A stretch of 56,376 nucleotides of DNA from an uncultured bacterium (lineage in GTDB: Bacteria; DYJV01). The stretch is from assembly GCA_964492825.1 (NCBI GenBank), contig CAZBLP010000004.1:1-56376 (forward strand), read 5' to 3'. Both the position numbers and the translations under genes were made by a program. Below the pieces are notes generated by a model. That model did no database searches, was not told the DNA's origin, and saw nothing but the letters and a program-made list of their open reading frames with translations. Shown here in pieces: positions 2,877 to 56,376 of the stretch (its first letter is position 1; the number at the start of each line of letters is the position of its first letter).

Positions 2877-4058
2877 ATGAATCTTAAAAAACTGAAAGAT
2901 AAATATGCAATTGCTGGTATTGGCTACACTGCACAAGGTAAAATTCCCGGCAGAACTGCCATAAGCTTTTATGTTGAAGCAGGAATTAATGCAATAAAGG
3001 ATGCTGGCCTTAAAAAGGAAGATATTGATGCATTAATATGCTACAGACAATTTAACCCTCTTCTTAACGAACCAACGGTTACCCCATATCTTGTTGCACA
3101 GCACCTTGGTATTAAACCGACAATTTTAAGCCAGGAATCTTTTTGCCAGAGGAATCAATTTATTCAGGCAGTTGCATTGCTTGAAGCTGGTTTTTGCAAA
3201 AATGTGTTAATAATCTATGCTGACAATGCTGCCACTGGCAAACGATTGTTTGTTGAAGAAGCGACTCATGGTGAATCTTTTAATGATAATTCCATACTTG
3301 GCGAATTCGGCTTTGTAGGTGATTATGCAATGGCTGCAAATAGGGCTATACATGAATTCAACACAGGCCCTGATACATGGAAACATATAGCTATAAGTCA
3401 GAGAAAATGGGCAAATCTCAATCCATTGGCTCAATATTTTAATAGCTCTCTCACTGAAAAAGATTATTTAAATGCACCTATAATTACAGAACCTTTCAGA
3501 AAATATGATGCAGCATTAATAAGTGATGGCGGTAGAGCCTGTATAATAACATCCACTGAAAGAGCAAAAGATTTAAAAAATCCGGTTGTTTCAATAATGG
3601 GAATTGGAGAAGCAAATCCTTCTACTGATGTTCATCAGGCTGATTTTCTTACAGGCAGCACCGGTGCAAAACAGTCAGGTGAAATGGCTTTTGGAATGGC
3701 ACAAATAAGTATAGATGAAATTGATGCTTGCCAGATTTATGATTGTTTTACTTATACTGTGGAGGTCACAATGCAGGACTATGGTTTTTTTGCACCAGGT
3801 GAAGGAAAAGATTTTTTCAAAAATAACAGAACAGCTCCTGGAGGCGAATTGCCGCTTAATACTTCCGGAGGTTTGCTTAATGAGGCATATTTTATGGGAT
3901 TGACACCAATTACTGAAGGTGTAATGCAGCTTATGGGAAGGTGCGGAAAAAGACAACTTGGTAAAAACACAGGCACAAAAAAACCTGAAATAATACTCTG
4001 CTGTGATAATGGCGGGGTTTTACAGAGTCATTCTACACTTATATTAAAAAAACTTTAA
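2877..4058 (+). CDS. thiolase-fold protein, SCP-x/Ltp2-like (possible acyl-CoA aldolase)
   Basis: AIAGIG start, ISDGGRACII, IYDCFT, LPLNTSGGLLNEAY; followed by DUF35 gene. Confidence 0.8.
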   Translation: MNLKKLKDKYAIAGIGYTAQGKIPGRTAISFYVEAGINAIKDAGLKKEDIDALICYRQFNPLLNEPTVTPYLVAQHLGIKPTILSQESFCQRNQFIQAVALLEAGFCKNVLIIYADNAATGKRLFVEEATHGESFNDNSILGEFGFVGDYAMAANRAIHEFNTGPDTWKHIAISQRKWANLNPLAQYFNSSLTEKDYLNAPIITEPFRKYDAALISDGGRACIITSTERAKDLKNPVVSIMGIGEANPSTDVHQADFLTGSTGAKQSGEMAFGMAQISIDEIDACQIYDCFTYTVEVTMQDYGFFAPGEGKDFFKNNRTAPGGELPLNTSGGLLNEAYFMGLTPITEGVMQLMGRCGKRQLGKNTGTKKPEIILCCDNGGVLQSHSTLILKKL

Positions 4059-16821: not shown

Positions 16822-18633
16822 CTATTCATAGAAAATTTTCAGTTGTTTACTTCTGTTGGGATGTCTGAGTTTCCTCAGGGCCTTAGCTTCAATTTGTCTT
16901 ATTCTTTCTCTTGTAACACTAAAATCTTTACCAACCTCTTCCAAAGTATGATCGTATTTTTCACCAATACCAAATCTCATTCTTAAAACTTTTTCTTCCC
17001 TTGGTGTCAATGTTGATAAAATTTTTCTTGTGGTTTCAGCAAGTGCTAAATTTATTGTAGCATTTGCAGGATTTATAACTCTTTTATCCTCAATAAAATC
17101 ACCTAAGATACTGTCTTCATCTTCTCCAATAGGAGTATCAAGAGAAACAGGTTCTTTGGATATTTTTAAAACCTTTCTTACTTTTTCCACAGGAAAATCC
17201 ATTTTTTCAGCAATTTCTTCTGCTGTTGGCTCTCTTCCAAGTTCTTGCACAAGACTCTTTGTAGTTCTTATAAGTTTATTTATTGTCTCTATCATATGTA
17301 CAGGTATCCTAATGGTTCTCGCTTGATCAGCTATTGCCCTTGTAATAGCCTGCCTAATCCACCATGTAGCATACGTACTAAATTTATATCCTCTCTGATA
17401 TTCAAACTTATCAACAGCTTTCATTAATCCAATATTGCCTTCTTGTACAAGATCTAAAAATTGCAATCCTCTATTTGCATACTTTTTGGCAATGCTAACA
17501 ACTAATCTCAAATTCGCTTTGACCAACTCGTTCTTTGCTTTTTCAGCTTTATTCTGAGTTTCTATAATTTCATAGTAAATTTTTTTGAATTCTTTTATTT
17601 CATAACCTGTTATTTTTTCAATTTCTTTAATTCTTTTTAAATATTCTGAATAACGCCTGGAGAATTCTTGAATTTTTTCAATATTAATATTAAACTTTGC
17701 ATACTTTTTTGCAACTTCCTCATTATGCAGGATATCATTAAATTTCTCTTTAATATCTGGAATAATTGTTTGAATCGAATCAATATTCCTCTCTATGGAG
17801 TTATATTCATTAACTAATTCTCTAAACCTATCAATAATTGAAGATAGCTGTTTGTTTTTAAGATTAATTGATTTAATAAGTTCAACAATTTTATTTGAGT
17901 TCTCTCTCATTTTTGCTTTTAAATCATTTTGCATATCTTCAGGAATATTTGTTTTCAGTTTCTCTTCAATTTCAATATTTTCATATTTTAATTCTTTTAT
18001 AGAATTTATAATTTCCAAGATTCTTGCAGTTTGCAAACGCTCTTCTTCTGACACAAACTCATAAACTTCACTATCCTCTTCAAAATGATAATTTTCCATC
18101 TCTTCTTCAATATCTCTTGTTACATCTCTAATACCGATTTTCTTGGTTTCTATTAATTTCTCCAATTCAAGAACTTGATCTGTGGTTAAAGGTGATCTGA
18201 TGATTTTTGAAACAATTATTTTCTCATTTTTTTCAATTTCTTTTGCAAGCTCAATTTCCTCCTCTTTTGACAAAAGAGGGATTTGTCCCATTTCTTTTAA
18301 ATATATTCTAATAGGTTCTGAAGTTCTGTAATTTGCATCATCAATAACAATTTTTTCTTCTAAATGTTCATCTTCTTCAGTATCCTGAGCAGTTGTATTT
18401 TCTTCCAAAATCTTTTTAGCTATTTTAATATTATTTTTTTTACCATCAATGATTTCTATATCCAACTCTTCCATTAATTCAATCATGTCTTCAATTTGTT
18501 CTGGATTAATATCAATAGGCAAAGAATTATTCAATTCTTCATAGGTTATAAAACCTTTTTCTTTTCCATACACAATTAATTGTTTTATTTCTTTTATTTT
18601 TCTTATATCAATTCCTTTTCTTGCAAGCTCCAT
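16822..18633 (-). CDS. rpoD: RNA polymerase sigma factor RpoD
   Basis: region 1.1/1.2, [48 protein letters not shown]. Confidence 0.97.
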
Positions 18634-46981: not shown

Positions 46982-47686
46982 TCAGACACTTTCATTATTC
47001 TTTAAAATATATCCTATACCTGGTGCAGACTCAATGACAACGTGATTTTTTAATTTCTTTCTCAAATGGTTAATATGAACATCAATTGTTCTTGACCAAT
47101 TATAAATATCTTTTCCTTTCCAAAGATTTTCTTTAATTTCATTTCTGGAGCATATTCTATCACTGTTTTCAATTAGAAACATTAAAAGATTAAATTCTGT
47201 TCTTGTTAAATTGATTTTTTCATTATTAATATAAGCTTCTCTTTTCTGAGGATAAATAGTTAATGATTTAATGTTGACTACATCTTTTGAATTTAGTTTA
47301 TTATCTTTAAAATTATATCTTCTTAAACAACTCTTTATTCTCGCTGAAAGTTCCAGAAAATTAAAAGGCTTAACAATATAATCATCTGCTCCGCATTCAA
47401 GCCCAAGAACTTTGTCAGATACAGCATCTCTTGCAGTTAACATAATAACAGGTATATCCATATTTTCTTTTCTTATTTTATTGCATAATTGAATTCCGTC
47501 TATATCCGGGAGATTTAAGTCAAGTATTATAATATCAGGATTAGCTCCGGAAATTAAATCATAGGCTTCAAGGCCTGTTTCAGCAGTAATCACATCATAT
47601 CCTTCCAATTTCAGATTTGCAGAAATAACCTTTAAAATATCCGTATCATCATCTATAACTAAAATTAATATATCATTTTGTTCCAT
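46982..47686 (-). CDS. OmpR/PhoB-family response regulator
   Basis: IDDD, ILDLNLP phospho-Asp, MLTA, DYIVKPF, LTRTEF, RTIDVHINHLRKK, GIGY. Confidence 0.93.
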   Translation of the reverse strand: MEQNDILILVIDDDTDILKVISANLKLEGYDVITAETGLEAYDLISGANPDIIILDLNLPDIDGIQLCNKIRKENMDIPVIMLTARDAVSDKVLGLECGADDYIVKPFNFLELSARIKSCLRRYNFKDNKLNSKDVVNIKSLTIYPQKREAYINNEKINLTRTEFNLLMFLIENSDRICSRNEIKENLWKGKDIYNWSRTIDVHINHLRKKLKNHVVIESAPGIGYILKNNESV

Positions 47687-49286
47687 TTTTTGCCTCTAAA
47701 TTAAATTTTTTATTAAAAATAATTATAAACTTTATTCTGTTTTTGTCTATTAATTTTACTTTTATATCTCCTTTATGTGCTAACATTATACCTTTTGCAA
47801 TGGCAAGCCCAAGCCCGCTTCCTTTTTCTTTTGAAGATTTGAGATGTTTGTATTTTAAGAAAAATGTTGATATATTTTTTTCATCTAGTTCATGATCAGT
47901 ATTGTTGCTAATTGAAATTTTTATTGATTCATCTGTTTCATCAATAGAAATTGTAATTTTATCATTTTCAGGTGAAAATTTTATTGCATTATGTAAAATA
48001 TTTATTAAAACCTGATTTATTCTTTTTCTGTCAAGATAGACAAAAAACTCTTTTTTAAAATTTATTTTTTCAAATTCTATATTTTTTTCATCTGCATACC
48101 CTTTAAAAAAAACAAGAATTTCTTCAATAATATTGTTTAGCTTTTCCTTTTTTAATTCCAGCTCCAATCTACCAATTTCAATTCGTGCAATATCTATTAG
48201 GTTATTAACCATTAAAATAAGGTTTTTAATGTTTTTATCTATTATTTCAATAAACTCTTTGTTCTCTTTTTTGGTCAAAACTTTTGAAAGATATTCAATG
48301 CCTCCCTGAATTGTTGTAAGAGGTGTTCTTAACTCATGGGATACAGTAGCTAAAAAGTCAGTTTTTAATTTATTTTTTCTTTTTAGTTCTTCAGTTGCTT
48401 TTTCAATCTCTTTCTGCATAATTTCATGGTTATTTTTAATAATATTAGCCATATCAAAAAAATTATTTTTTAATTCTCCTATTTCATCCTTTCTTGATGA
48501 TTTCTCAAATTCAGTTAAATAATTTTCTTTAAATCTCTCAATACGCTCCTTTATTGAATTAACAGGTTTAATAACAAGAAAATAATTTAAAAAATATATT
48601 ATTAAAATTGTAAAAAAAATTATAAGCAGTGAAGAGAAAAAGTAGTATTTTTTTATTATACACAACTTTTTATCTACATCAGACAAAGGGAGTAAAACAC
48701 TTATACAACCTCTCAATTCCCCTATATTATATCCTTGATACATATGACAGGTAAGACAAGATTTTTTTATATATAGAGGTCTAATCAATCTGTAAAATTT
48801 TTTATGCATTAGATACTCAACCTGAGTCACCTCTTTGGCTTTTTTCCTGTCAAAAATCCTCAAAGCATAACTTTCAGTGTCATCAGGAGCATTTGCAGGA
48901 TTAATTAAAAAATTACTTGATAGCTTGAAAAAATATTTTCCGTTTTTAAAAGCATAGTCGGAAAGCTCTCTTGTAACCATAGCTGGATTTCTTTTTAGAA
49001 AAATTTTATCTCCGCATTTTATAAAAGGTTTACTCAAGTAAGGATTAATATAAAGTCCTTTTCTTTTTAAAACATAAACCCCTCCAATATCAGCTATCCA
49101 TTTTCTTGTTAATATTATTTGATCAACTAAAATCTCTGCTTGTTTATAAACTTCTTCATATAAAAATTTTTTCTCTTGTTTAAAAAACATATAAAAGATT
49201 CCTCCTAAAATTAAGGAAAGAACAGTTATAATCCCCATTAGATACTTAAAACTAAGAGAAAAATAAAATTTTTTAATTATTTGCAT
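47673..49286 (-). CDS. sensor histidine kinase with periplasmic DUF3365/Tll0287-like heme-c domain
   Basis: TM1, NPANAPD...CLTCH (CxxCH), TM2, HAMP, VSHELRTPL, NAIKF, GSGLGL. Confidence 0.88.
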   Translation of the reverse strand: MQIIKKFYFSLSFKYLMGIITVLSLILGGIFYMFFKQEKKFLYEEVYKQAEILVDQIILTRKWIADIGGVYVLKRKGLYINPYLSKPFIKCGDKIFLKRNPAMVTRELSDYAFKNGKYFFKLSSNFLINPANAPDDTESYALRIFDRKKAKEVTQVEYLMHKKFYRLIRPLYIKKSCLTCHMYQGYNIGELRGCISVLLPLSDVDKKLCIIKKYYFFSSLLIIFFTILIIYFLNYFLVIKPVNSIKERIERFKENYLTEFEKSSRKDEIGELKNNFFDMANIIKNNHEIMQKEIEKATEELKRKNKLKTDFLATVSHELRTPLTTIQGGIEYLSKVLTKKENKEFIEIIDKNIKNLILMVNNLIDIARIEIGRLELELKKEKLNNIIEEILVFFKGYADEKNIEFEKINFKKEFFVYLDRKRINQVLINILHNAIKFSPENDKITISIDETDESIKISISNNTDHELDEKNISTFFLKYKHLKSSKEKGSGLGLAIAKGIMLAHKGDIKVKLIDKNRIKFIIIFNKKFNLEAKNGTK

Positions 49287-49309: not shown

Positions 49310-49864
49310 TTAAAAAGTCAAAATAAAATTTTCAATAAGCTGAATAACATGCTCATAAAATTTTATATTCTCTTTTTTAACTTTTTTATTAAGTTCAGGG
49401 ATCCAGCTTTTCAGATGGGTATTTTCAAAGGAAATTAACTTTTCAATTTTGTTTTCAGAACTCAAATAATGTGCAAATTCAAGTATGGTAGGAAGGTAAT
49501 CAGGCATATCTCTGTCAGCAAGTTCCACACCTTCTTCATAATATAACTTTTCAAGAGACAATAGGAACTTAGCTCTGTCTTCAGCTCTATCGCTTTTTAC
49601 TATATAATGAGATTCATATAATGGAGTTTTCAAATCAAAATTGGTTGTGTATGTAACCTGTAACTCCTCTATATCTGTAAAATCTTTTCTCATTAAATTG
49701 ATTAGCTTTTCACTTCCGTCTCGCCTGAAATATTCTTTAAGATTATCAAAAAGCCAACCAGAAATGATAGCTTCAGCTATTTCTTTGTCAGGATAACTTA
49801 TTGCCATTGATAAAAGTTTATAATTTACTGTTTTGTTAATGCTTTCATCCATAACTATCTCCAA
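49310..49864 (-). CDS. TorD/DmsD/NarJ-family molybdoenzyme chaperone (delta subunit)
   Basis: YTTNFD...PLYES...MPDYLPTILEF; directly after beta subunit; start may be a few codons downstream. Confidence 0.8.
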   Translation of the reverse strand: MEIVMDESINKTVNYKLLSMAISYPDKEIAEAIISGWLFDNLKEYFRRDGSEKLINLMRKDFTDIEELQVTYTTNFDLKTPLYESHYIVKSDRAEDRAKFLLSLEKLYYEEGVELADRDMPDYLPTILEFAHYLSSENKIEKLISFENTHLKSWIPELNKKVKKENIKFYEHVIQLIENFILTF

Positions 49865-49875
49865 AAGATAAAGAT

Positions 49876-49948
49876 TGATTAGGATTTAGTTTCAGGGATT
49901 AGGATATAGTTTTTTCACTAAATCCTATCCCCTAAATCCCAAATCCTA
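49876..49948. repeat. intergenic inverted array of GGATT(T)A/TAAATCC heptamers
   Basis: GATTAGGATTTAG...GGGATTAGGATATAG versus CTAAATCCTATCCCCTAAATCCCAAATCCTA. Confidence 0.55.
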
Positions 49949-49987: not shown

Positions 49988-50905
49988 TTACAACTTCCAT
50001 GTTGGAAAACCTGTTAATACATCAACAAGTTCTGATTGGGATTTTTCTCTTTCAGTTTCAAGAATTTTTTTAATTTCTTTCACTTTTTTACCAAAAAGTC
50101 CCTCCAAATATGTATAATCAACTCTTTCTCCACTGCTGTTTCCCTTATCATCTATTTTATGCTGAGCTACCATAACAGGTGGAATATAAAACACTTTTGG
50201 TTTTGTATTAAATTCGGAAAGAAGTGGAACAGCAACCTTATATTTTTTAACAAGTTTGTATACAGGAGATTCTTTATCATTTAATTTACCAAAAAATCTT
50301 GCTTTCCCAGGACATGTAATAACACAGGCAGGTGGCTCTCCTTTTTCAAGTCTTGGGAAACAAAAAATACACTTCTCAGCATTATCCATGTTTTTATTAA
50401 AAAATATTCTTTTATACGGACATGCATCTATACAATCTCCCGCACCTTCACATTTTTCACTGTCAATAAGTACAAAACCTTCTTTGGTCTTGTAAATTGC
50501 TTTTGCAGGACATGCCTTCATACAAGCAGGATCTTCACAATGCATACAGATCATAGGCAAATAAAAAAACCATTCATCTGCAACATTCATCCCATTACCC
50601 ATATCCTCGTAATAGTTTGGACTATTTTTAAGGTTTATACCAATATTAGGCAAACCTTTTCCTTTATTGCTGTGTAATTTGGAGTAATCAAATTTAGGTA
50701 CATTCTCATAATCTTTGTCATCCATCTTCATTTTCTTTTTTGTTTTCTCAAGCCAATTGTATGGATATCCCTGCCCCGGACGTGTCTCTACAATGGTAAA
50801 CCACATATGCTGTGCACCATCTCTATTGCTCCATAGCATTTTACATGCAACAGTGCATGCTTGACAACCAAGACATTTATTTAAATCTATTACCATACCG
50901 TACAT
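49988..50905 (-). CDS. DMSO-reductase family type II beta (Fe-S) subunit, NarH/PcrB/SerB-like
   Basis: CLGCQACTVACK, WFFYLPMICMHCEDPACMKACP, CEGAGDCIDACPY, CIFCFPR...CVITCP. Confidence 0.9.
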   Translation of the reverse strand: MYGMVIDLNKCLGCQACTVACKMLWSNRDGAQHMWFTIVETRPGQGYPYNWLEKTKKKMKMDDKDYENVPKFDYSKLHSNKGKGLPNIGINLKNSPNYYEDMGNGMNVADEWFFYLPMICMHCEDPACMKACPAKAIYKTKEGFVLIDSEKCEGAGDCIDACPYKRIFFNKNMDNAEKCIFCFPRLEKGEPPACVITCPGKARFFGKLNDKESPVYKLVKKYKVAVPLLSEFNTKPKVFYIPPVMVAQHKIDDKGNSSGERVDYTYLEGLFGKKVKEIKKILETEREKSQSELVDVLTGFPTWKL

Positions 50906-50929: not shown

Positions 50930-53900
50930 TTACATAATTTTTTTAATTTCTACTGAAGTATCACATTCATTTCCAGTAACACCCCAGAAATTCCAACCAT
51001 ATTTCAAATGATAAGAAGGTGCTTTTGTTTCAGGATACTTTACAGATTGAGTAGGTTTTGGCCTAATTGGAGTAATACCGTTAAACCATCCTTTTATTGT
51101 GGTGAACATCTCAGCACCGTTTGCAACTCTTACTTCTCCCTCTTTAATGCCAGCCATAACTTTTGCCCTGCAAATCATTTCTCCGAATTCATTGAATATT
51201 TTAATTTTATCTCCGTCATTTATTCCTCTTTTTAAAGCATCTGCTTTACTCATTAATGCAATTGTCTCACCTCTTTGTAGCCTTAGAAGAATGTCCACAT
51301 CTCTAAATGTTGAATGTGTTCCCCATCTGCCGTGAGGAGTATTCAATTTTAACGGAGCTTTTGTTCTCTTATCAGGAAGTCTGTCAAATTCAGGTTCCTT
51401 GTATATTGGCAGCTCATTTCTCAAATCAAGGAAATATGAATGATCAATGTAAAACTGTTGCCTTCCTGTTAATGTTTTGGCACCAATCATACCAAGATAT
51501 TTTTTACCGAAAAATTTAGGAACCTTCACTTTCCCACCTATAGTAATTTTTTCTTTGGCAAGTTTTCCACCTCCTGGCCATGGCAAAAGTCCTTCCACAT
51601 TTTCAACAAAAGGAGTAAGAGGTCTTCTGCTCTGAGCAGCTGGAAATGGAACAGGAGCTTTTCTAATCAATTTCACAATTCCATCAATGTATCCTTTTAC
51701 ATCTCCTTTAAAAAGTTTGTTTTCTATTATTTGCTGAAGTTCTGGAGCATAGTTGTTTTTATGTGCTTTATACTCATCAGGATTAGGATAAATTATAGGG
51801 CTTTTAGTTAGGATAAATTTGGCTGATTTAACATCAGTGTCCATTTTCCCATTAGCTGTAAATACAGAATAAACTTTTGTAAAATCAATGGTTTGTTTTT
51901 TTTCTGTATCTTTCCATTTTCCATCCCACCTGCCTGTTGCTACCAATTTATGGGAATAATTCTGTATTCCTTTTGCAATTAATTTAAAGATTTCATAATC
52001 TGTTTTTGATTCATATAGAGGTTTTATTACAGGATTGAATGCCTGCAGATATACATGCATAGGAGTAGTTTCAACATCAAATTTTTCGTACCAAGTAGCA
52101 GCCGGTAATACTACATCACAAAAAAGTGCCGTAGAGTTAATCCTAAAATCAATTGTTACCAAAAATTCAAGTTTTTCAGGATCTTTGAACCATTTTAACG
52201 TATTATATCCGCCTTTACCCTGGTTTAAGAAATTTGACCTCCAAATTATCATTGCTCGTGGCTTTTTCGGTGGTTTTGGATAAACAGGTATCCATTTTTT
52301 TGCAAGAGATTTAATAAGCAGATAATAATTGTAAGCCCAGCCATCATCTTTATTAGCACTAACAGGTAAACCATTAGGTAGTCTTTTCAATTTGCCTGAT
52401 TCTATATCCTTTACTATTTCAGGATATGTTTTGCCAAGTTTATACAGTTCTGCATCATAATGTGACCAAACAAAAAGAGTAGCATTTTGAGGTCTTGCTT
52501 TTAGTATCATTCCATATTTTCCAAGACCGCTTAGCCATACTTTATATTGCCCTGTATATTGGCTGAAACCTGAACCGGTTTTCCCAACATTACCAGTAAG
52601 AGCAAGCATTAATATCATTGAACGGTTATTAATATCATTGTTAAACCAGTGGTTAACTCCACCGCCACCAATAATCATTGCAGGTTTTTTACTAACAAGG
52701 TCAAGAGCAAATTCTTTTAATGTCGCCTCACCTATACCGGTTATTTGAAAAACTTTACCAGGTGTAAATTTTGAAACTTCTTTTTTAAGTTTGTTAAAAA
52801 CAGTTTCTACCTGAACTTTCATTCCGTTCTTAAGAGTAATTTCTCCTTCATAAAATAGAGAAGGATCAATATTGTATTTTTTCAGATTAAGTGTATCTCT
52901 GTTATCACCAAGAGTTCCTGGTGGATTAACTATCATCATTGAATTATTATCATAAACAAAAAGTTTAAAAGCATTTCCACCTGATTTCACATCAGCTTCA
53001 GTGAGGAATTTACCATTATCTTTTCTAATAATAAAAGGCAAATCAGTAAAAGTTTTAACATATTCATGGTCAAAACTGTGGCTTGAAATTAAATAATTAA
53101 TAACACCATTTGCAAATGCTGCATCAGTACCAGGCTTTGGCGAAATAAAAACATCGCCCATTCTTGCTGTAGCATTGTAATCTGTCATAATAGTATAAAT
53201 TTTTGTGCCTCTGTATTTGGATTCTTGCAATAGATGAGCTGCTGCAAGTCTTGATTCAGCAACATTTGCTCCCCAGAAAATAAGAAGTTTTGCATTTTTC
53301 CAGTCAGCTTCTTCACTTTCTTCTGTTTGAACTGCCCATGTCATTGGCTCTCCTGGAGGTAAATCACAGTACCAATCATAAAAACTCAATGGGCCACTTG
53401 CTCCCATAATTTTACAAAGCCTGTAGCCTGCACCTGCTGATACATAACTGTAAGCAGGAATTGCAGAAAAAAATACAACTTCATCTGAACCATGCTTTCT
53501 TGAAATATCAGTAAGTTTTTTGGAAATCAGGCTTATTGCTTCGTCCCATGTTGCTCTTCTGAATTTCCCTTCTCCTCTTTTCCCAACTCTTATTAAAGGA
53601 TGTTTCAATCTCATATCACCGTAAACATATCTGAGATAACTTGCACCTCTTAAACAACCACGTGGATTATAATATTTACCGAGAACTTTGTCATAAGTGT
53701 CGTAATCACCTGCCGGAGCAATTTCTACAATGTATTTGTCTCCTTTTACAAAAGCATTCCAGCCACAAGCTTGAGTACAGTTTGCAGAACATACACTTCT
53801 TATAACTTTGTCATAATCAAATACTTTTCTTAATTTGTCTTCGCTAACTTTGTGAAGTTTTCTGCCCACAAATTTTCCTGCATAAAGATTTTCAGAAATT

Positions 53901-53986
53901 AATGGTAAAGCTGTAAGCCCTGCTAATCCTCCTGCAACTGTTCCTAAAAACTTACGTCTTGTAATTTTTCTACTGTTTCCTGACAT
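50930..53986 (-). CDS. Tat-exported DMSO-reductase family type II molybdoenzyme alpha subunit (periplasmic NarG-like)
   Basis: TRRKFL Tat motif; CSANCTQAC...RGC FS0; SFYDWYCDLPP with Asp Mo ligand; TPHGRWGTHS. Confidence 0.88.
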   Translation of the reverse strand: MSGNSRKITRRKFLGTVAGGLAGLTALPLISENLYAGKFVGRKLHKVSEDKLRKVFDYDKVIRSVCSANCTQACGWNAFVKGDKYIVEIAPAGDYDTYDKVLGKYYNPRGCLRGASYLRYVYGDMRLKHPLIRVGKRGEGKFRRATWDEAISLISKKLTDISRKHGSDEVVFFSAIPAYSYVSAGAGYRLCKIMGASGPLSFYDWYCDLPPGEPMTWAVQTEESEEADWKNAKLLIFWGANVAESRLAAAHLLQESKYRGTKIYTIMTDYNATARMGDVFISPKPGTDAAFANGVINYLISSHSFDHEYVKTFTDLPFIIRKDNGKFLTEADVKSGGNAFKLFVYDNNSMMIVNPPGTLGDNRDTLNLKKYNIDPSLFYEGEITLKNGMKVQVETVFNKLKKEVSKFTPGKVFQITGIGEATLKEFALDLVSKKPAMIIGGGGVNHWFNNDINNRSMILMLALTGNVGKTGSGFSQYTGQYKVWLSGLGKYGMILKARPQNATLFVWSHYDAELYKLGKTYPEIVKDIESGKLKRLPNGLPVSANKDDGWAYNYYLLIKSLAKKWIPVYPKPPKKPRAMIIWRSNFLNQGKGGYNTLKWFKDPEKLEFLVTIDFRINSTALFCDVVLPAATWYEKFDVETTPMHVYLQAFNPVIKPLYESKTDYEIFKLIAKGIQNYSHKLVATGRWDGKWKDTEKKQTIDFTKVYSVFTANGKMDTDVKSAKFILTKSPIIYPNPDEYKAHKNNYAPELQQIIENKLFKGDVKGYIDGIVKLIRKAPVPFPAAQSRRPLTPFVENVEGLLPWPGGGKLAKEKITIGGKVKVPKFFGKKYLGMIGAKTLTGRQQFYIDHSYFLDLRNELPIYKEPEFDRLPDKRTKAPLKLNTPHGRWGTHSTFRDVDILLRLQRGETIALMSKADALKRGINDGDKIKIFNEFGEMICRAKVMAGIKEGEVRVANGAEMFTTIKGWFNGITPIRPKPTQSVKYPETKAPSYHLKYGWNFWGVTGNECDTSVEIKKIM

Positions 53987-54031: not shown

Positions 54032-54101
54032 ATTTTATATACATTATATTAAAGTAAATTTGCTGTAAAATAGTGTTATTTTCTTGTAAAGATTCTGTAA
54101 A
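54032..54101 (-). promoter_or_regulatory. promoter module A: five phased TTTACA-type direct repeats + -10 region (molybdoenzyme operon)
   Basis: minus strand TTTACA-gaatc-TTTACA-agaaa-ATAACA-ctat-TTTACA-gcaaa-TTTACT-N9-TGTA-TATAAAAT. Confidence 0.7.
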
Positions 54102-54304
54102 AAAAAGGAAAATTGGATTTTGTTGATAGAATTTAGGATATAGTTTTTTTATAATTCTATAATCCAGTTATAAATTTATATAACAGTTTAATGTGGAGGG
54201 TATAGTAATTCAACATTTTATACAAAGTATTTACAATCATTCAATCAATTACAGTCAATTACAATTAATAACCATAAATAACTAATTCTTCATTATTAAT
54301 TGTA

Positions 54305-54868
54305 TTATTTTAAATTTTCTTTAAAAATAGTTATTTTTTTACCTTTCTCCAATTTGTCAACAAGTTTTTTGTATAATTTTTTCTCTTTTCCAAGTGCAAT
54401 ATAGTCTCTTGCCGTAACTCTATCAACTCCTTTATGTTTTTTCACATAATCATCAATTTCCTCTGTAGTGACTTTAACCTTTTTAGAAATGTTTTCAATA
54501 AAATATTGCCTTAGAACTATGGTTGTCTGATAAGAATTGTCTTTTTTTAAGAAACTGTGTTTTTTAAAATTTTCCTTCATGGTTTTTCTTCCAAAATAAC
54601 CTTTTTCCCTTGCGTCTTCGATAATAAGAGTTCTTTCTATTAAATGATTCAACATTTTTAATTTTTCATCCAAGGTTGAAGGCTTTTTATTAAAAAGATT
54701 AAGAAAGTCGATATAATCCTGATAAGTAATTTCCATATTATTTATCTTTGCAACAATAATTTTCTCACTTGATTTAACAGGTGCATTGTTTTTTTTGTCC
54801 ACAGACGCTGCCAACAAAACAGGCAATATTACAACAATAAGAATAGTGTTAAAAATTTTTATTTTCAT
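54305..54868 (-). CDS. secreted SurA N-terminal-domain-like protein
   Basis: signal peptide; IVAKINNMEIT...LNHLIERTLIIEDAREKG; no PPIase core seen. Confidence 0.6.
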   Translation of the reverse strand: MKIKIFNTILIVVILPVLLAASVDKKNNAPVKSSEKIIVAKINNMEITYQDYIDFLNLFNKKPSTLDEKLKMLNHLIERTLIIEDAREKGYFGRKTMKENFKKHSFLKKDNSYQTTIVLRQYFIENISKKVKVTTEEIDDYVKKHKGVDRVTARDYIALGKEKKLYKKLVDKLEKGKKITIFKENLK

Positions 54869-54948
54869 AAAAAATATTCCTCCTTAAAAGTTTTAAAGTA
54901 AAATTAAAATAAACAAAACTTTTTTTTAAGTCAATTGCAAATAATAAT

Positions 54949-55018
54949 TTTACAAAATCTTTACAAAAAATTTACACACTTTAACCCCAAATTTACTTTT
55001 ATTAGTTGTATATAATAT
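54949..55018 (+). promoter_or_regulatory. promoter module B: five phased TTTACA-type direct repeats + -10 region (Rieske/cytochrome b operon)
   Basis: TTTACA-aaatc-TTTACA-aaaaa-TTTACA-cact-TTAACC-ccaaa-TTTACT-N9-TGTA-TATAATAT. Confidence 0.7.
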
Positions 55019-55055: not shown

Positions 55056-55508
55056 ATGGCTGATGAAGAAAAAAAAGAAGATTTGTCAAGAAGAGATTTT
55101 ATGTCCAATTTTGCAGCTGGTATTGGTATAGCAGCAGTTGGAGTAACTTCCGCAGTCTATGGTTTCAAATACCTTGTTCCCCCTTCTAAGAAAAAGAAAG
55201 AAGTAAAAGTTTTAATGGCTAAAGCTAATGAAATTAAGCCTGGAGAAGCAAAAGAATTTTTTGACGGACAGGGTAGAAAAGCTCTGCTTGTTAATCAAAA
55301 TGGCAAAATTAAAGCTTTTTCAAAAATCTGCACTCATCTTGGATGTGAGGTTGAATGGAAACCTGAAGAAAATATTTTCTTCTGTCCCTGTCATTTAGGC
55401 AAATTTGATGCAAACGGTAAAAACATTGCAGGTCCTCCGCCTCGTCCTCTTGATGAGTTTAAAGTAGAGGTAAAGGATAATTTTGTTTTTGTTACTTTAA
55501 TAGTTTAA
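55056..55508 (+). CDS. Rieske [2Fe-2S] protein of a Rieske/cytochrome b complex
   Basis: SRRDFM Tat anchor, CTHLGC and CPCHLG boxes; GGAGG RBS favours ATG 55056. Confidence 0.93.
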   Translation: MADEEKKEDLSRRDFMSNFAAGIGIAAVGVTSAVYGFKYLVPPSKKKKEVKVLMAKANEIKPGEAKEFFDGQGRKALLVNQNGKIKAFSKICTHLGCEVEWKPEENIFFCPCHLGKFDANGKNIAGPPPRPLDEFKVEVKDNFVFVTLIV

Positions 55509-55523
55509 AGGAGGTGAGAATAT

Positions 55524-56376
55524 ATGATTAATGCTCAAAATATGAGTACATGGGAAAAATTTAAAGCAGTTGTGCTTGACGAAGATCTGCCTGAACATAT
55601 GAAAATATGGTGGTGGTGTCTTGGAGGAGTGCCTGCTGTTCTTCTTTTAATATTGATAATTACCGGGATTCTCCTTGCAATGAATTATTCTCCTACAATC
55701 AGCGGTGCCTATGAAAGCGTAAATTACATTACCAACAATATAAGATATGGATGGTGGTTAAGAGCTATTCATAAATGGTCAGCAGAGTTAATGGTAGTTA
55801 CTGTTTCATTGCATGTTATAAGAGTGTTTTTTACTCGCGCTTATACAAAACCAAGAGAATATGTATGGATGTCAGGGGTTCTACTTTTACTTATGACACT
55901 ATTTGCAGGTTTTACAGGTTATTCTTTGCTTTATACCCAGAAATCTTATTGGGCAGTTACAGCTGGTACAAATTTGGCCGGGAAAATTGCCATTGTAGGT
56001 CCATTCTTGCAAAAATTGCTAATTGCAGGTGACTCTTTTAATAAATTCACTTTAAGCAGATTCCTGATTTTACACGGTGCAGTTGTTCCTGCTGTAATAG
56101 GCGGTATAATTTTTATTCACATAATTCTTCTGAGAAAAGTTGGAGTAAGTGAGTTAAATGGAGGAGGCAAAACATATAAATTTTATCCCGACCATATTAT
56201 GACTGAAGTTATTATAGGTTTAATGTTGCTTTTCTTTATGACTGTTCTTGCAATAGTTTTTCCTTTAGAACCTGGAGTAAAAGCCAATCCTCTTGTTACT
56301 CCGCTGCATATTAAACCTGAGTGGTATTTTTATCCTATGTTTAAGTGGATAAAATTAACCTCACAATGGATAGGAT
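55524..56376 (+). CDS. cytochrome b/b6 (fused b6 + subunit IV), truncated by window end
   Basis: hand-translated open frame from ATG 55524 (AGGAGG RBS): WWWCLGG, IHKW, LHVI, LHGA, IHII, IKPEWYFYP; absent from the ORF track because the stop lies outside the window. Confidence 0.92.
   Translation, partial: MINAQNMSTWEKFKAVVLDEDLPEHMKIWWWCLGGVPAVLLLILIITGILLAMNYSPTISGAYESVNYITNNIRYGWWLRAIHKWSAELMVVTVSLHVIRVFFTRAYTKPREYVWMSGVLLLLMTLFAGFTGYSLLYTQKSYWAVTAGTNLAGKIAIVGPFLQKLLIAGDSFNKFTLSRFLILHGAVVPAVIGGIIFIHIILLRKVGVSELNGGGKTYKFYPDHIMTEVIIGLMLLFFMTVLAIVFPLEPGVKANPLVTPLHIKPEWYFYPMFKWIKLTSQWIG

Follow-up and report, generated by a model that had tools for sequence, protein, structure and literature searches.

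Twin phased TTTAC-repeat modules as probable activator-dependent promoters of a molybdoenzyme operon and a Rieske/cytochrome b operon in an uncultured hydrothermal-vent bacterium

The DNA analysed here, referred to as the window, is a stretch of 56,376 nucleotides (nt) of contig CAZBLP010000004.1 (assembly GCA_964492825.1) from an uncultured bacterium. It comes from a hydrothermal-vent metagenome and its G+C content (GC) is 31.5%. Two promoter-like modules of closely similar sequence lie in it in opposite orientation, module A on the minus strand before the genes of a molybdoenzyme and module B on the plus strand before the genes of a Rieske protein and a cytochrome b. A preliminary description had given a 49-nt sequence for each module, and both were recovered exactly by script with 40 of 49 positions identical. 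The repeat steps of 11-11-10-11 that it claimed hold in both modules when they are recomputed, and TGTATATAA(A/T)AT is indeed present behind both, 9 nt past the repeats. The extended arms, 54032-54102 on the minus strand and 54948-55018 on the plus strand, are identical at 56 of 71 positions (79%), and a repeat finder independently gave them as the region's longest inverted repeat (71 nt). Read toward its gene, each arm consists of five TTTAC-type hexamers (R5 to R1), a spacer of 11 nt and the sequence TATATA, as follows:

54032-54102, minus strand: module A, with five direct repeats, an 11-nt spacer, a predicted -10 and a predicted transcription start site (TSS) at about 54029
54101-54096, minus strand: R5 of module A, TTTACA
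54090-54085, minus strand: R4 of module A, TTTACA
54079-54074, minus strand: R3 of module A, ATAACA (degenerate)
54069-54064, minus strand: R2 of module A, TTTACA
54058-54053, minus strand: R1 of module A, TTTACT
54041-54036, minus strand: predicted -10 of module A, TATATA, exactly 11 nt past R1
54948-55018, plus strand: module B, with five direct repeats, an 11-nt spacer, a predicted -10 and a predicted TSS at about 55021
54949-54954, plus strand: R5 of module B, TTTACA
54960-54965, plus strand: R4 of module B, TTTACA
54971-54976, plus strand: R3 of module B, TTTACA
54981-54986, plus strand: R2 of module B, TTAACC
54992-54997, plus strand: R1 of module B, TTTACT
55009-55014, plus strand: predicted -10 of module B, TATATA, exactly 11 nt past R1

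The pair TTTAC-N6-TTTAC was seen five times in the window against 0.40 expected, none of 100 shuffles gave five, and the modules account for four of the five matches. Scoring over two units discriminates poorly in DNA of 31.5% GC, where the random maximum pair score is 18.8, and therefore phased scoring over four units was used. The position weight matrix (PWM), 9 nt long, was made only from 28 orthologous units from outside the window, and scores were summed over four units at steps of 10 or 11 nt. Module B scored 33.7 and module A 29.1, and the next site in the 56 kb scored 13.5. When the window was shuffled 40 times under a first-order Markov model, the maximum per shuffle averaged 13.1 with a standard deviation of 2.5 and never exceeded 18.6. 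A matrix to which the window contributed nothing singles out just the two modules within 56 kb.

Two other matches to this kind of sequence were seen. At 1755-1787 on the plus strand there is a two-repeat site, TTTACAAAAAATTTACT, followed after 11 nt by TATTAT, in the same geometry as in the modules. It sits in the 3' end of a SnoaL/DUF4440-like open reading frame (ORF, 1442-1819), and a MoaE-like (molybdopterin synthase) ORF at 1882-2232 lies about 100 nt downstream of it. This site may be a weak third member of the regulon or it may be due to chance, with 0.4 pairs expected per window. The other match is a 94-nt contig in the source metagenome run X1 that resembles module B (54948-54996) with 4 mismatches and has unrelated flanks, which suggests a further copy of the module in the community, at another promoter or in a related strain.

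The genes and the additional promoter of the locus are the following:

46982-47686, minus strand: response regulator of the OmpR/PhoB family (REC and Trans_reg_C), the proposed binder of both modules
47673-49286, minus strand: sensor histidine kinase; its periplasmic domain is Tll0287-like (sCache_heme) with the heme-c motif CLTCH, and HisKA and HATPase_c come after it
49310-49864, minus strand: delta, a NarJ/TorD-like assembly chaperone
49988-50905, minus strand: beta subunit, iron-sulfur protein of the type II dimethyl sulfoxide (DMSO) reductase family
50930-53986, minus strand: alpha subunit, the catalytic subunit of a molybdoenzyme of the type II DMSO reductase family, 1018 amino acids
54305-54868, minus strand: SurA_N-like putative periplasmic chaperone, 187 amino acids, between the modules and kept beside the alpha gene in relatives
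54906-54934, minus strand: canonical sigma-70-type promoter TTGACT-17-TATTTT of the SurA_N-like gene, back-to-back with module B
55057-55508, plus strand: Rieske [2Fe-2S] subunit, its start set at the ATG at 55057, behind AAGGAGGTG
55525-56376, plus strand: cytochrome b, continuing past the end of the window

From this order of genes, module A is predicted to drive the alpha-beta-delta-kinase-regulator operon and module B the Rieske/cytochrome b operon. The two had been described as divergent operons; they do not share one intergenic region, and the SurA_N-like gene with its own promoter separates the modules. The promoter of the SurA_N-like gene has a matching sequence in the relative L091 and, read by eye, a TTGACA-containing counterpart in L082 (relatives and metagenomic loci are given L numbers). 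The spacer between the SurA_N-like gene and the alpha gene varies widely in length among relatives, for example 127 nt in L082 and 445 nt in L091. In the window this spacer holds the direct repeats TGTAATTGAC, TGTAATTGAT and TGAATGATTGTAAAT (54226-54272, minus strand), about 125-170 nt upstream of module A.

The closest solved relatives of the alpha subunit are the perchlorate reductase PcrA (E = 2e-147) and then NarG, and an exact-protein look-up of the subunit returned no record. By our own reading, which no tool confirmed, it appears to carry a twin-arginine signal. No terminator-like site was found between the alpha and the regulator genes, and a weak TTGACT-17-TAAAAT match lies ahead of the kinase gene; therefore module A probably also drives transcription of the two-component genes, which would have some basal expression besides. 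The spacer between beta and delta (49880-49948, minus strand) can form a long near-perfect hairpin with a minimum free energy of -35.4 kcal/mol (z = -6.8; none of 200 shuffles reached this stability), behind which a clear U-tract was not seen. The word CTATATCCTAA is common to this hairpin and to 54133-54143 on the minus strand, and a similar sequence (...CTATATCCTAAATCC...) lies in L091 around 3400-3420. The hairpin may serve in processing or stability of the transcript, or it may terminate transcription in part and so set the stoichiometry of subunits to regulator. On the other side of the locus, a multiheme cytochrome of about 540 amino acids comes after cytochrome b in relatives. Three metatranscriptome runs have contigs that match the cytochrome b gene (55481-56376) at 99% identity or more, so that in situ expression of the Rieske/cytochrome b operon is probable, although the contigs may stem from DNA carried over into these runs. 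The window also encodes a complete primary sigma factor, RpoD (16822-18633, minus strand), with region 4 included. Its relatives of more than 70% identity are all from metagenome-assembled genomes (MAGs), and next come MAGs labelled Deltaproteobacteria/Syntrophobacteria at about 51%.

The layout of the modules was examined with the -10 placed at -12 to -7, which gives the repeats the following positions relative to the predicted start:

R1: -29 to -24
R2: -40 to -35
R3: -50 to -45
R4: -61 to -56
R5: -72 to -67

The repeats had been said to abut the -35 region. Instead, they occupy its place. Neither R1 nor R2 is usable as a -35 element because their spacers to the -10 are 11 and 22 nt, not 17±1. 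A sigma-70 scan of the modules gave no proper -35/-10 pair on the relevant strands, and the sole match near them is a weak one (9/12, TTAATA-17-AATAAT) just downstream of module A, whereas the SurA_N-like gene beside them does have a canonical pair. When 25 modules from the window and other loci were aligned, a TTGACA-like hexamer at 17±1 was absent from all 25, a box starting with TA stood 11 nt after R1 in 23 and the full TAnnnT in 20, and many had TG or TGn directly before the -10. Using this family-conserved TAnnnT, the TSSs that had been guessed at about 54025 (minus) and 55024 (plus) shift by a few bases and are now predicted at about 54029 and 55021. As in a PHO box, the repeats stand over the -35 or instead of it, and their distance to the predicted -10 is short and constant; this supports a PHO-box-like, activator-dependent layout, from which we infer activation as the direction of regulation.

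Relatives of the locus were gathered via the alpha subunit and via the regulator. In a scan of genome contigs, L001 was the sole close relative and the other matches were NarG-like (24-39%). A module lies upstream of the alpha gene in L081 (58% GC), L082, L083, and L091, and upstream of the Rieske gene in L081, L082, L084/L085, L091, and L001. These orthologous modules come from genomes whose GC ranges from 29% to 58% and in which the genes stand in four orders, and the repeats persist wherever upstream DNA could be compared, L086-L088 (below) excepted. Aligned on the last repeat, all nine orthologous promoters have R1 as TTTAC(A/T/C), then 11 nt, then TATNNT (in one case TAATTA), and most of them have 11-10-11 as their proximal steps, with the alpha module of L081 deviating. 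In GC-rich genomes the spacers are rich in C and G (e.g. TTTACCCCCTT in L084) and TTTAC is kept.

The number of modules goes with the arrangement of the genes. A single module is found where there is one operon, before Rieske-cytochrome b-multiheme cytochrome-SurA_N-alpha-beta-delta in L084 and L183, and probably before the same one-operon cluster in L001. Two modules are found where the cluster is split, as in the window, L082, L091, and L081, and in L081 the two are in direct orientation and 5.4 kb apart. Both in the window and in L091, R2 is TTAAC in the Rieske module and R3 is degenerate in the alpha module. Since these module-specific quirks are common to the two, the twins would be old, with selection on their hexamers, phasing, and -10 keeping them alike, and by this comparison they appear to be neither a recent duplication nor the ends of a mobile element. 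In L086-L088, whose alpha subunits are 66% identical, the module is absent and genes for DDE and Tn5-type transposases or insertion sequence elements lie directly upstream of alpha, which looks like a natural replacement or disruption of the promoter. In L093 the module was not found in the DNA at hand. The closest homologue of the regulator on a long contig (81% identical) is in L090 (38-7334) together with a Tll0287 kinase, and this pair follows another respiratory operon that encodes a cytochrome c3-like protein, a 4Fe-4S protein, NrfD, and a multiheme cytochrome of 529 amino acids. The contig begins at the first gene of that operon, and no module was found in the DNA from there on. A hybrid-cluster protein gene lies near the cluster in L084 and L091.

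The regulator of the window has the receiver domain (PF00072) and the Trans_reg_C winged helix (PF00486) expected of a cognate regulator for such an operator, and its recognition helix region is YNWSRTIDVHINHLRKKL. Four orthologues that are 46-49% identical to it overall keep the recognition-helix stretch ...Y.WSRT(I/V)DV..(Q/N).LR.K. The kinase matches PF11845 (E = 3.5e-17), HisKA, and HATPase_c, and has CLTCH in its sensor domain; PF11845 with a CXXCH motif is thus fused to a transmitter, as in a sCache_heme sensor kinase with predicted heme attachment. Metagenomes were scanned with the pattern TTTAC-N6-TTTAC-N5-TTWAC-N6-TTTAC, and at least 120 loci matched. Fifteen of the matches listed carry a regulator 40-48% identical to that of the window, and in 13 of these 15 the helix (I/L)YSWSR(T/V)IDVHIQHLR is kept, while the regulators of L127 and L101 diverge just ahead of SR(T/V)IDVH. 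Over all orthologues, at 40-49% identity, the helix kept can be written (I/L)Y(S/N)WSR(T/V)IDVHI(Q/N)HLR. In these loci a full-length kinase homologue is usually encoded immediately upstream of the regulator, all five kinases tested have the Tll0287 domain (PF11845), and the module lies within tens of bases after the regulator gene and ahead of the target genes. Altogether more than 20 independent loci, whose target operons differ, link the operator to a kinase/regulator pair, and it often lies right after the stop codon of the regulator gene. Regulators of the scan that have other helices adjoin TTTAC arrays without the -10 geometry. The genes found downstream of the module, with the basis on which each was named, are:

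L154 and L208: napA (NCBIfam)
L131: napD and then napA (NCBIfam)
L107, L164 and L118: a small napD-like ORF (similarity to the L131 product)
L166: nrfH-nrfA (NCBIfam)
L195: nrfH-like (N-terminal similarity)
L152: a multiheme protein like hydrazine dehydrogenase/Hao (NCBIfam)
L127 and L101: a multiheme protein similar to the L152 product (N-terminal similarity)
L143: an NrfA-like cytochrome of 557 amino acids (NCBIfam)
L185: a cytochrome of 557 amino acids similar to that of L143 (N-terminal similarity)
L183 and L187: Rieske-cytochrome b (ORF calls)

Further downstream in L183 there is an alpha subunit 67% identical to that of the window. By guilt by association, the gene neighbourhoods and the -10 spacing of these loci argue strongly that the local regulator would be the binder and that the regulon would concern nitrate/nitrite respiration. 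The preliminary description had proposed an OmpR/PhoB-type operator TTTACA-N5, the regulator at 46982-47686 as its predicted binder, and a single regulon made up of the molybdoenzyme and Rieske/cytochrome b operons. The phylogenetic footprint, the linkage of operator and two-component genes, and the conserved recognition helix together support this reading at the level of sequence.

As an element, this is a classical one, an OmpR/PhoB-type direct-repeat operator at a promoter that lacks a -35, but the family of its regulator is undescribed in the literature searched. The E. coli PHO box (pstS) ends 10 bp before the -10, and the modules have the same spacing when seven bases are counted to the unit. 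The boxes of PhoB in E. coli and of PhoP in Streptomyces and Mycobacterium are like the modules in that they have units of 11 nt with about 6-7 conserved and 4-5 variable positions, often 2-4 or more of them, in an array that takes the place of the -35 or lies over part of it and stops about 10 bp short of the -10. In those systems activation proceeds through contact with RNA polymerase. PHO boxes consist of paired 11-nt direct repeat units to which the winged-helix domain is bound head-to-tail, and at least two units are needed (PMC4415409, PMC2275107). The modules have direct repeats in the same orientation with a period of 10-11 bp, and the relatives have 3-5 units. In cryo-electron microscopy structures of activation complexes, tandem PhoP dimers overlap the -35 (PMC11825685). 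Unlike in these systems, the half-site here is TTTAC(A/C) in place of CTGTCAT or GTTCACC, the sensor of the kinase is a heme-c Cache domain and its architecture is not that of PhoR, and the targets are respiratory genes and not phosphate genes. Orthology to the Pho regulon was considered and rejected because the regulator scores 194.7 against a cutoff of 296.2 for the NCBIfam model of PhoB, TIGR02154, and 195.2 against 270 for NF053854, and because the targets are molybdoenzyme, Rieske/cytochrome b, nap, and nrf genes.

The half-site has its closest counterparts elsewhere in the OmpR family. In cyanobacteria, the redox-responsive OmpR-family regulator RpaB binds HLR1, direct repeats of (G/T)TTACA(T/A)(T/A) with a period of about 10 bp (PMC6525291). 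HLR1, however, is a single pair of 8-nt repeats 2 nt apart, that is, with a 10-bp step, whereas the modules have 4-5 units at 11-10-11, and the partner kinase, the phylum, and the regulon all differ. As an orthologue of RpaB the regulator was rejected, with 208 bits against a cutoff of 330 for NF045944. Liu and Hulett (1998; cited in PMC2275107) reportedly described for Bacillus subtilis PhoP four TT(A/T/C)ACA repeats with a period of about 11 bp, on the coding strand from about -60 to -20, at promoters without a -35. That system serves a phosphate starvation regulon with another kinase, and the likeness is one of sequence resemblance only. TorR, also of the OmpR family, activates the molybdoenzyme operon torCAD through four phased direct repeats upstream of it; the tor box is CTGTTCATAT, and TorS is a hybrid kinase working with the periplasmic binding protein TorT. 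The regulator of the window differs from TorR, with a score of 142.8 against a cutoff of 275.

For the same kind of target genes, a dedicated but unrelated two-component system, NrfS/NrfR, has been proposed in Desulfovibrio to make the nap and nrfHA promoters respond together to nitrite or nitrate (PMC5701242). NrfR is a sigma-54-dependent activator of the NtrC type, whereas the regulator here has only REC and Trans_reg_C and lacks the sigma-54 interaction (AAA+) domain. The sCache_heme family was defined recently, and a signalling representative behaves as a sensor of nitric oxide (NO) (bioRxiv 10.64898/2026.02.01.703092). The kinase of the window, with PF11845 (Tll0287/DUF3365) and CXXCH fused to HisKA/HATPase, has the 'cluster 2' signalling architecture of this family. 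When the preprint was searched for the terms, regulators, operons, nitrate, and nitrite were not mentioned, and therefore the output side described here is new relative to it. In Caldithrix abyssi, Rieske/cytochrome b genes are embedded in nitrate-reduction loci beside the octaheme epsilon-Hao (PMC5317091).

We consider it probable that the modules are activator-dependent promoters in which a phased TTTAC(A/C/T) array in the place of the -35, from about -72 to -24, would serve the local regulator. Several points weigh against this. Lone repeat pairs are not rare by chance at 31.5% GC (random maximum 18.8), five half-sites are an odd count for a protein that binds as a dimer, and R3 of module A is degenerate. 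The matches of the metagenome scan were chosen by the pattern itself, so that their hexamers are not independent evidence and only the gene context and the -10 spacing are. The RNA evidence consists of metatranscriptome contigs over cytochrome b only, with coverage that stops short of the promoter. The position of the array would also not by itself guarantee activation; RpaB represses where HLR1 is near or over the core promoter (PMC6525291). The same regulator could thus be a repressor that on binding from -72 to -24 occludes RNA polymerase at an extended -10 promoter until the signal relieves it, and the TG or TGn before the -10 of many modules might let an extended -10 fire without an activator. 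This seems unlikely to us because none of the 25 modules has a TTGACA-like hexamer at 17±1 and because the distance from R1 to the -10 is constant to the base pair across phyla, which fits contact between a protein and the polymerase and is unneeded for occlusion. The geometry is, moreover, that of the PHO-box and PhoP activation complexes (PMC4415409, PMC11825685). It is more doubtful still that an unlinked OmpR-family regulator, a global one like PhoP or RpaB, binds the sites and that the local two-component system controls something else. Half-sites of the TTTACA type are bound by other proteins of the OmpR family too, such as RpaB at the (G/T)TTACA(T/A)(T/A) of HLR1 (PMC6525291), so that another regulator could share the sites; this counts for an unlinked regulator and also against the local one. 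RpaB is the best NCBIfam match of the window regulator (208 bits against the cutoff of 330), and the likeness to the B. subtilis PhoP repeat TT(A/T/C)ACA points the same way. But the operator stands beside a histidine kinase-response regulator pair of the local subfamily in more than 20 loci with varied targets, the recognition helix is conserved along with the operator, regulators with other helices adjoin TTTAC arrays that lack the -10 geometry, and the targets are genes of nitrogen-oxide respiration and not phosphate or light genes.

Two explanations do without a regulator, and both appear very improbable. One is that the phased T/A-rich repeats need no sequence-specific protein and work mainly by intrinsic curvature of the DNA, or in the manner of an UP element. 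Runs of T or A phased at 10-11 bp would bend DNA at 31.5% GC, and the spacers in the window are A-rich. In GC-rich relatives, however, the spacers turn C/G-rich while TTTAC is invariant, and therefore it is the recognition sequence that is conserved and not A-tracts. The other, which we regard as the least credible of all, is that the arms are the terminal inverted repeats of a mobile or duplicated SurA_N cassette, or a recent tract of duplication or gene conversion, with no regulatory role. Inverted arms of 71 nt, 79% identical, around a one-gene segment of 845 bp do look like such a cassette. Yet no transposase was found between the arms and there is no sign of mobility, the modules of L081 are direct and 5.4 kb apart, L084, L001, and L183 have a single module, the similarity is focused on the phased hexamers and the -10 and is not even, and the module-specific differences common to L091 point to an old divergence of the copies. 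Terminal inverted repeats of a transposon or of a miniature inverted-repeat transposable element were rejected on similar grounds, there being no transposase and no other full copy found by the PWM in the window.

If the modules are activator-dependent promoters, the following mechanism can be proposed. The phosphorylated regulator (46982-47686) would bind the array as head-to-tail dimers on the pairs R2-R1 and R4-R3, with 11 bp within a pair and 21 bp (two helical turns) between pairs, and R5 would be an extra unit of this lineage. Regulator at R1/R2 would recruit the RNA polymerase holoenzyme to the TAnnnT -10 that lies 11 nt downstream, in the style of PhoB at the PHO box. The kinase (47673-49286) would sense a periplasmic signal, probably NO or a related nitrogen-oxide or redox cue, through covalent heme c in its Cache-type domain. 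Promoter A would then supply the periplasmic Nar/Pcr-like molybdoenzyme, its chaperone, and the two-component system itself, and promoter B the Rieske/cytochrome b quinol oxidase, with the multiheme cytochrome, that would feed the molybdoenzyme. Since the two-component genes are inside the first operon, positive feedback would be expected. Binding of the regulator, the positions of the TSSs, the signal of the kinase, and the substrate of the enzyme are all predictions from the sequence comparisons given above.

We lean, by a narrow balance, to a wider reading in which the window holds one example of a widespread unit that has gone undescribed, and that switches nitrate/nitrite reduction genes in many uncultured anaerobes. 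It would be made up of a heme-c Cache kinase of the NO-binding type, an OmpR-family regulator whose helix reads YSWSR(T/V)IDVHIQHLR, and a TTTAC operator of four units with steps of 11-10-11 whose last unit lies 11 nt before the -10, and its targets would be nap, nrfHA, Hao-like octaheme enzymes, and periplasmic Nar-like enzymes with Rieske/cytochrome b. No description of this regulon was found in the literature on DUF3365/Tll0287 and on OmpR-type regulators of nap and nrf. Relative to the literature searched, what is new is the lead that Cache_heme kinases and this regulator subfamily broadly control nap, nrf, Hao-like, and periplasmic Nar genes. Biochemical characterisation of the Cache_heme/Tll0287 sensor class is very recent and the class had no described outputs, and the modules give a precise operator and promoter geometry for a two-component system with such a sensor. 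The unit, if it is as we propose, would be the OmpR-type counterpart of NarXL/NarQP and NrfSR. In an uncultured lineage of hydrothermal vents, the modules would link the function of a periplasmic Nar/Pcr-like molybdoenzyme, itself poorly understood, with that of a dedicated Rieske/cytochrome b complex, and the operator could be used as a sequence tag for nitrogen-oxide respiration regulons (nap, nrf, Hao-like) in metagenomes. This predicts that nap, nrf, and Hao-like genes would respond to a periplasmic signal sensed by heme, such as NO.

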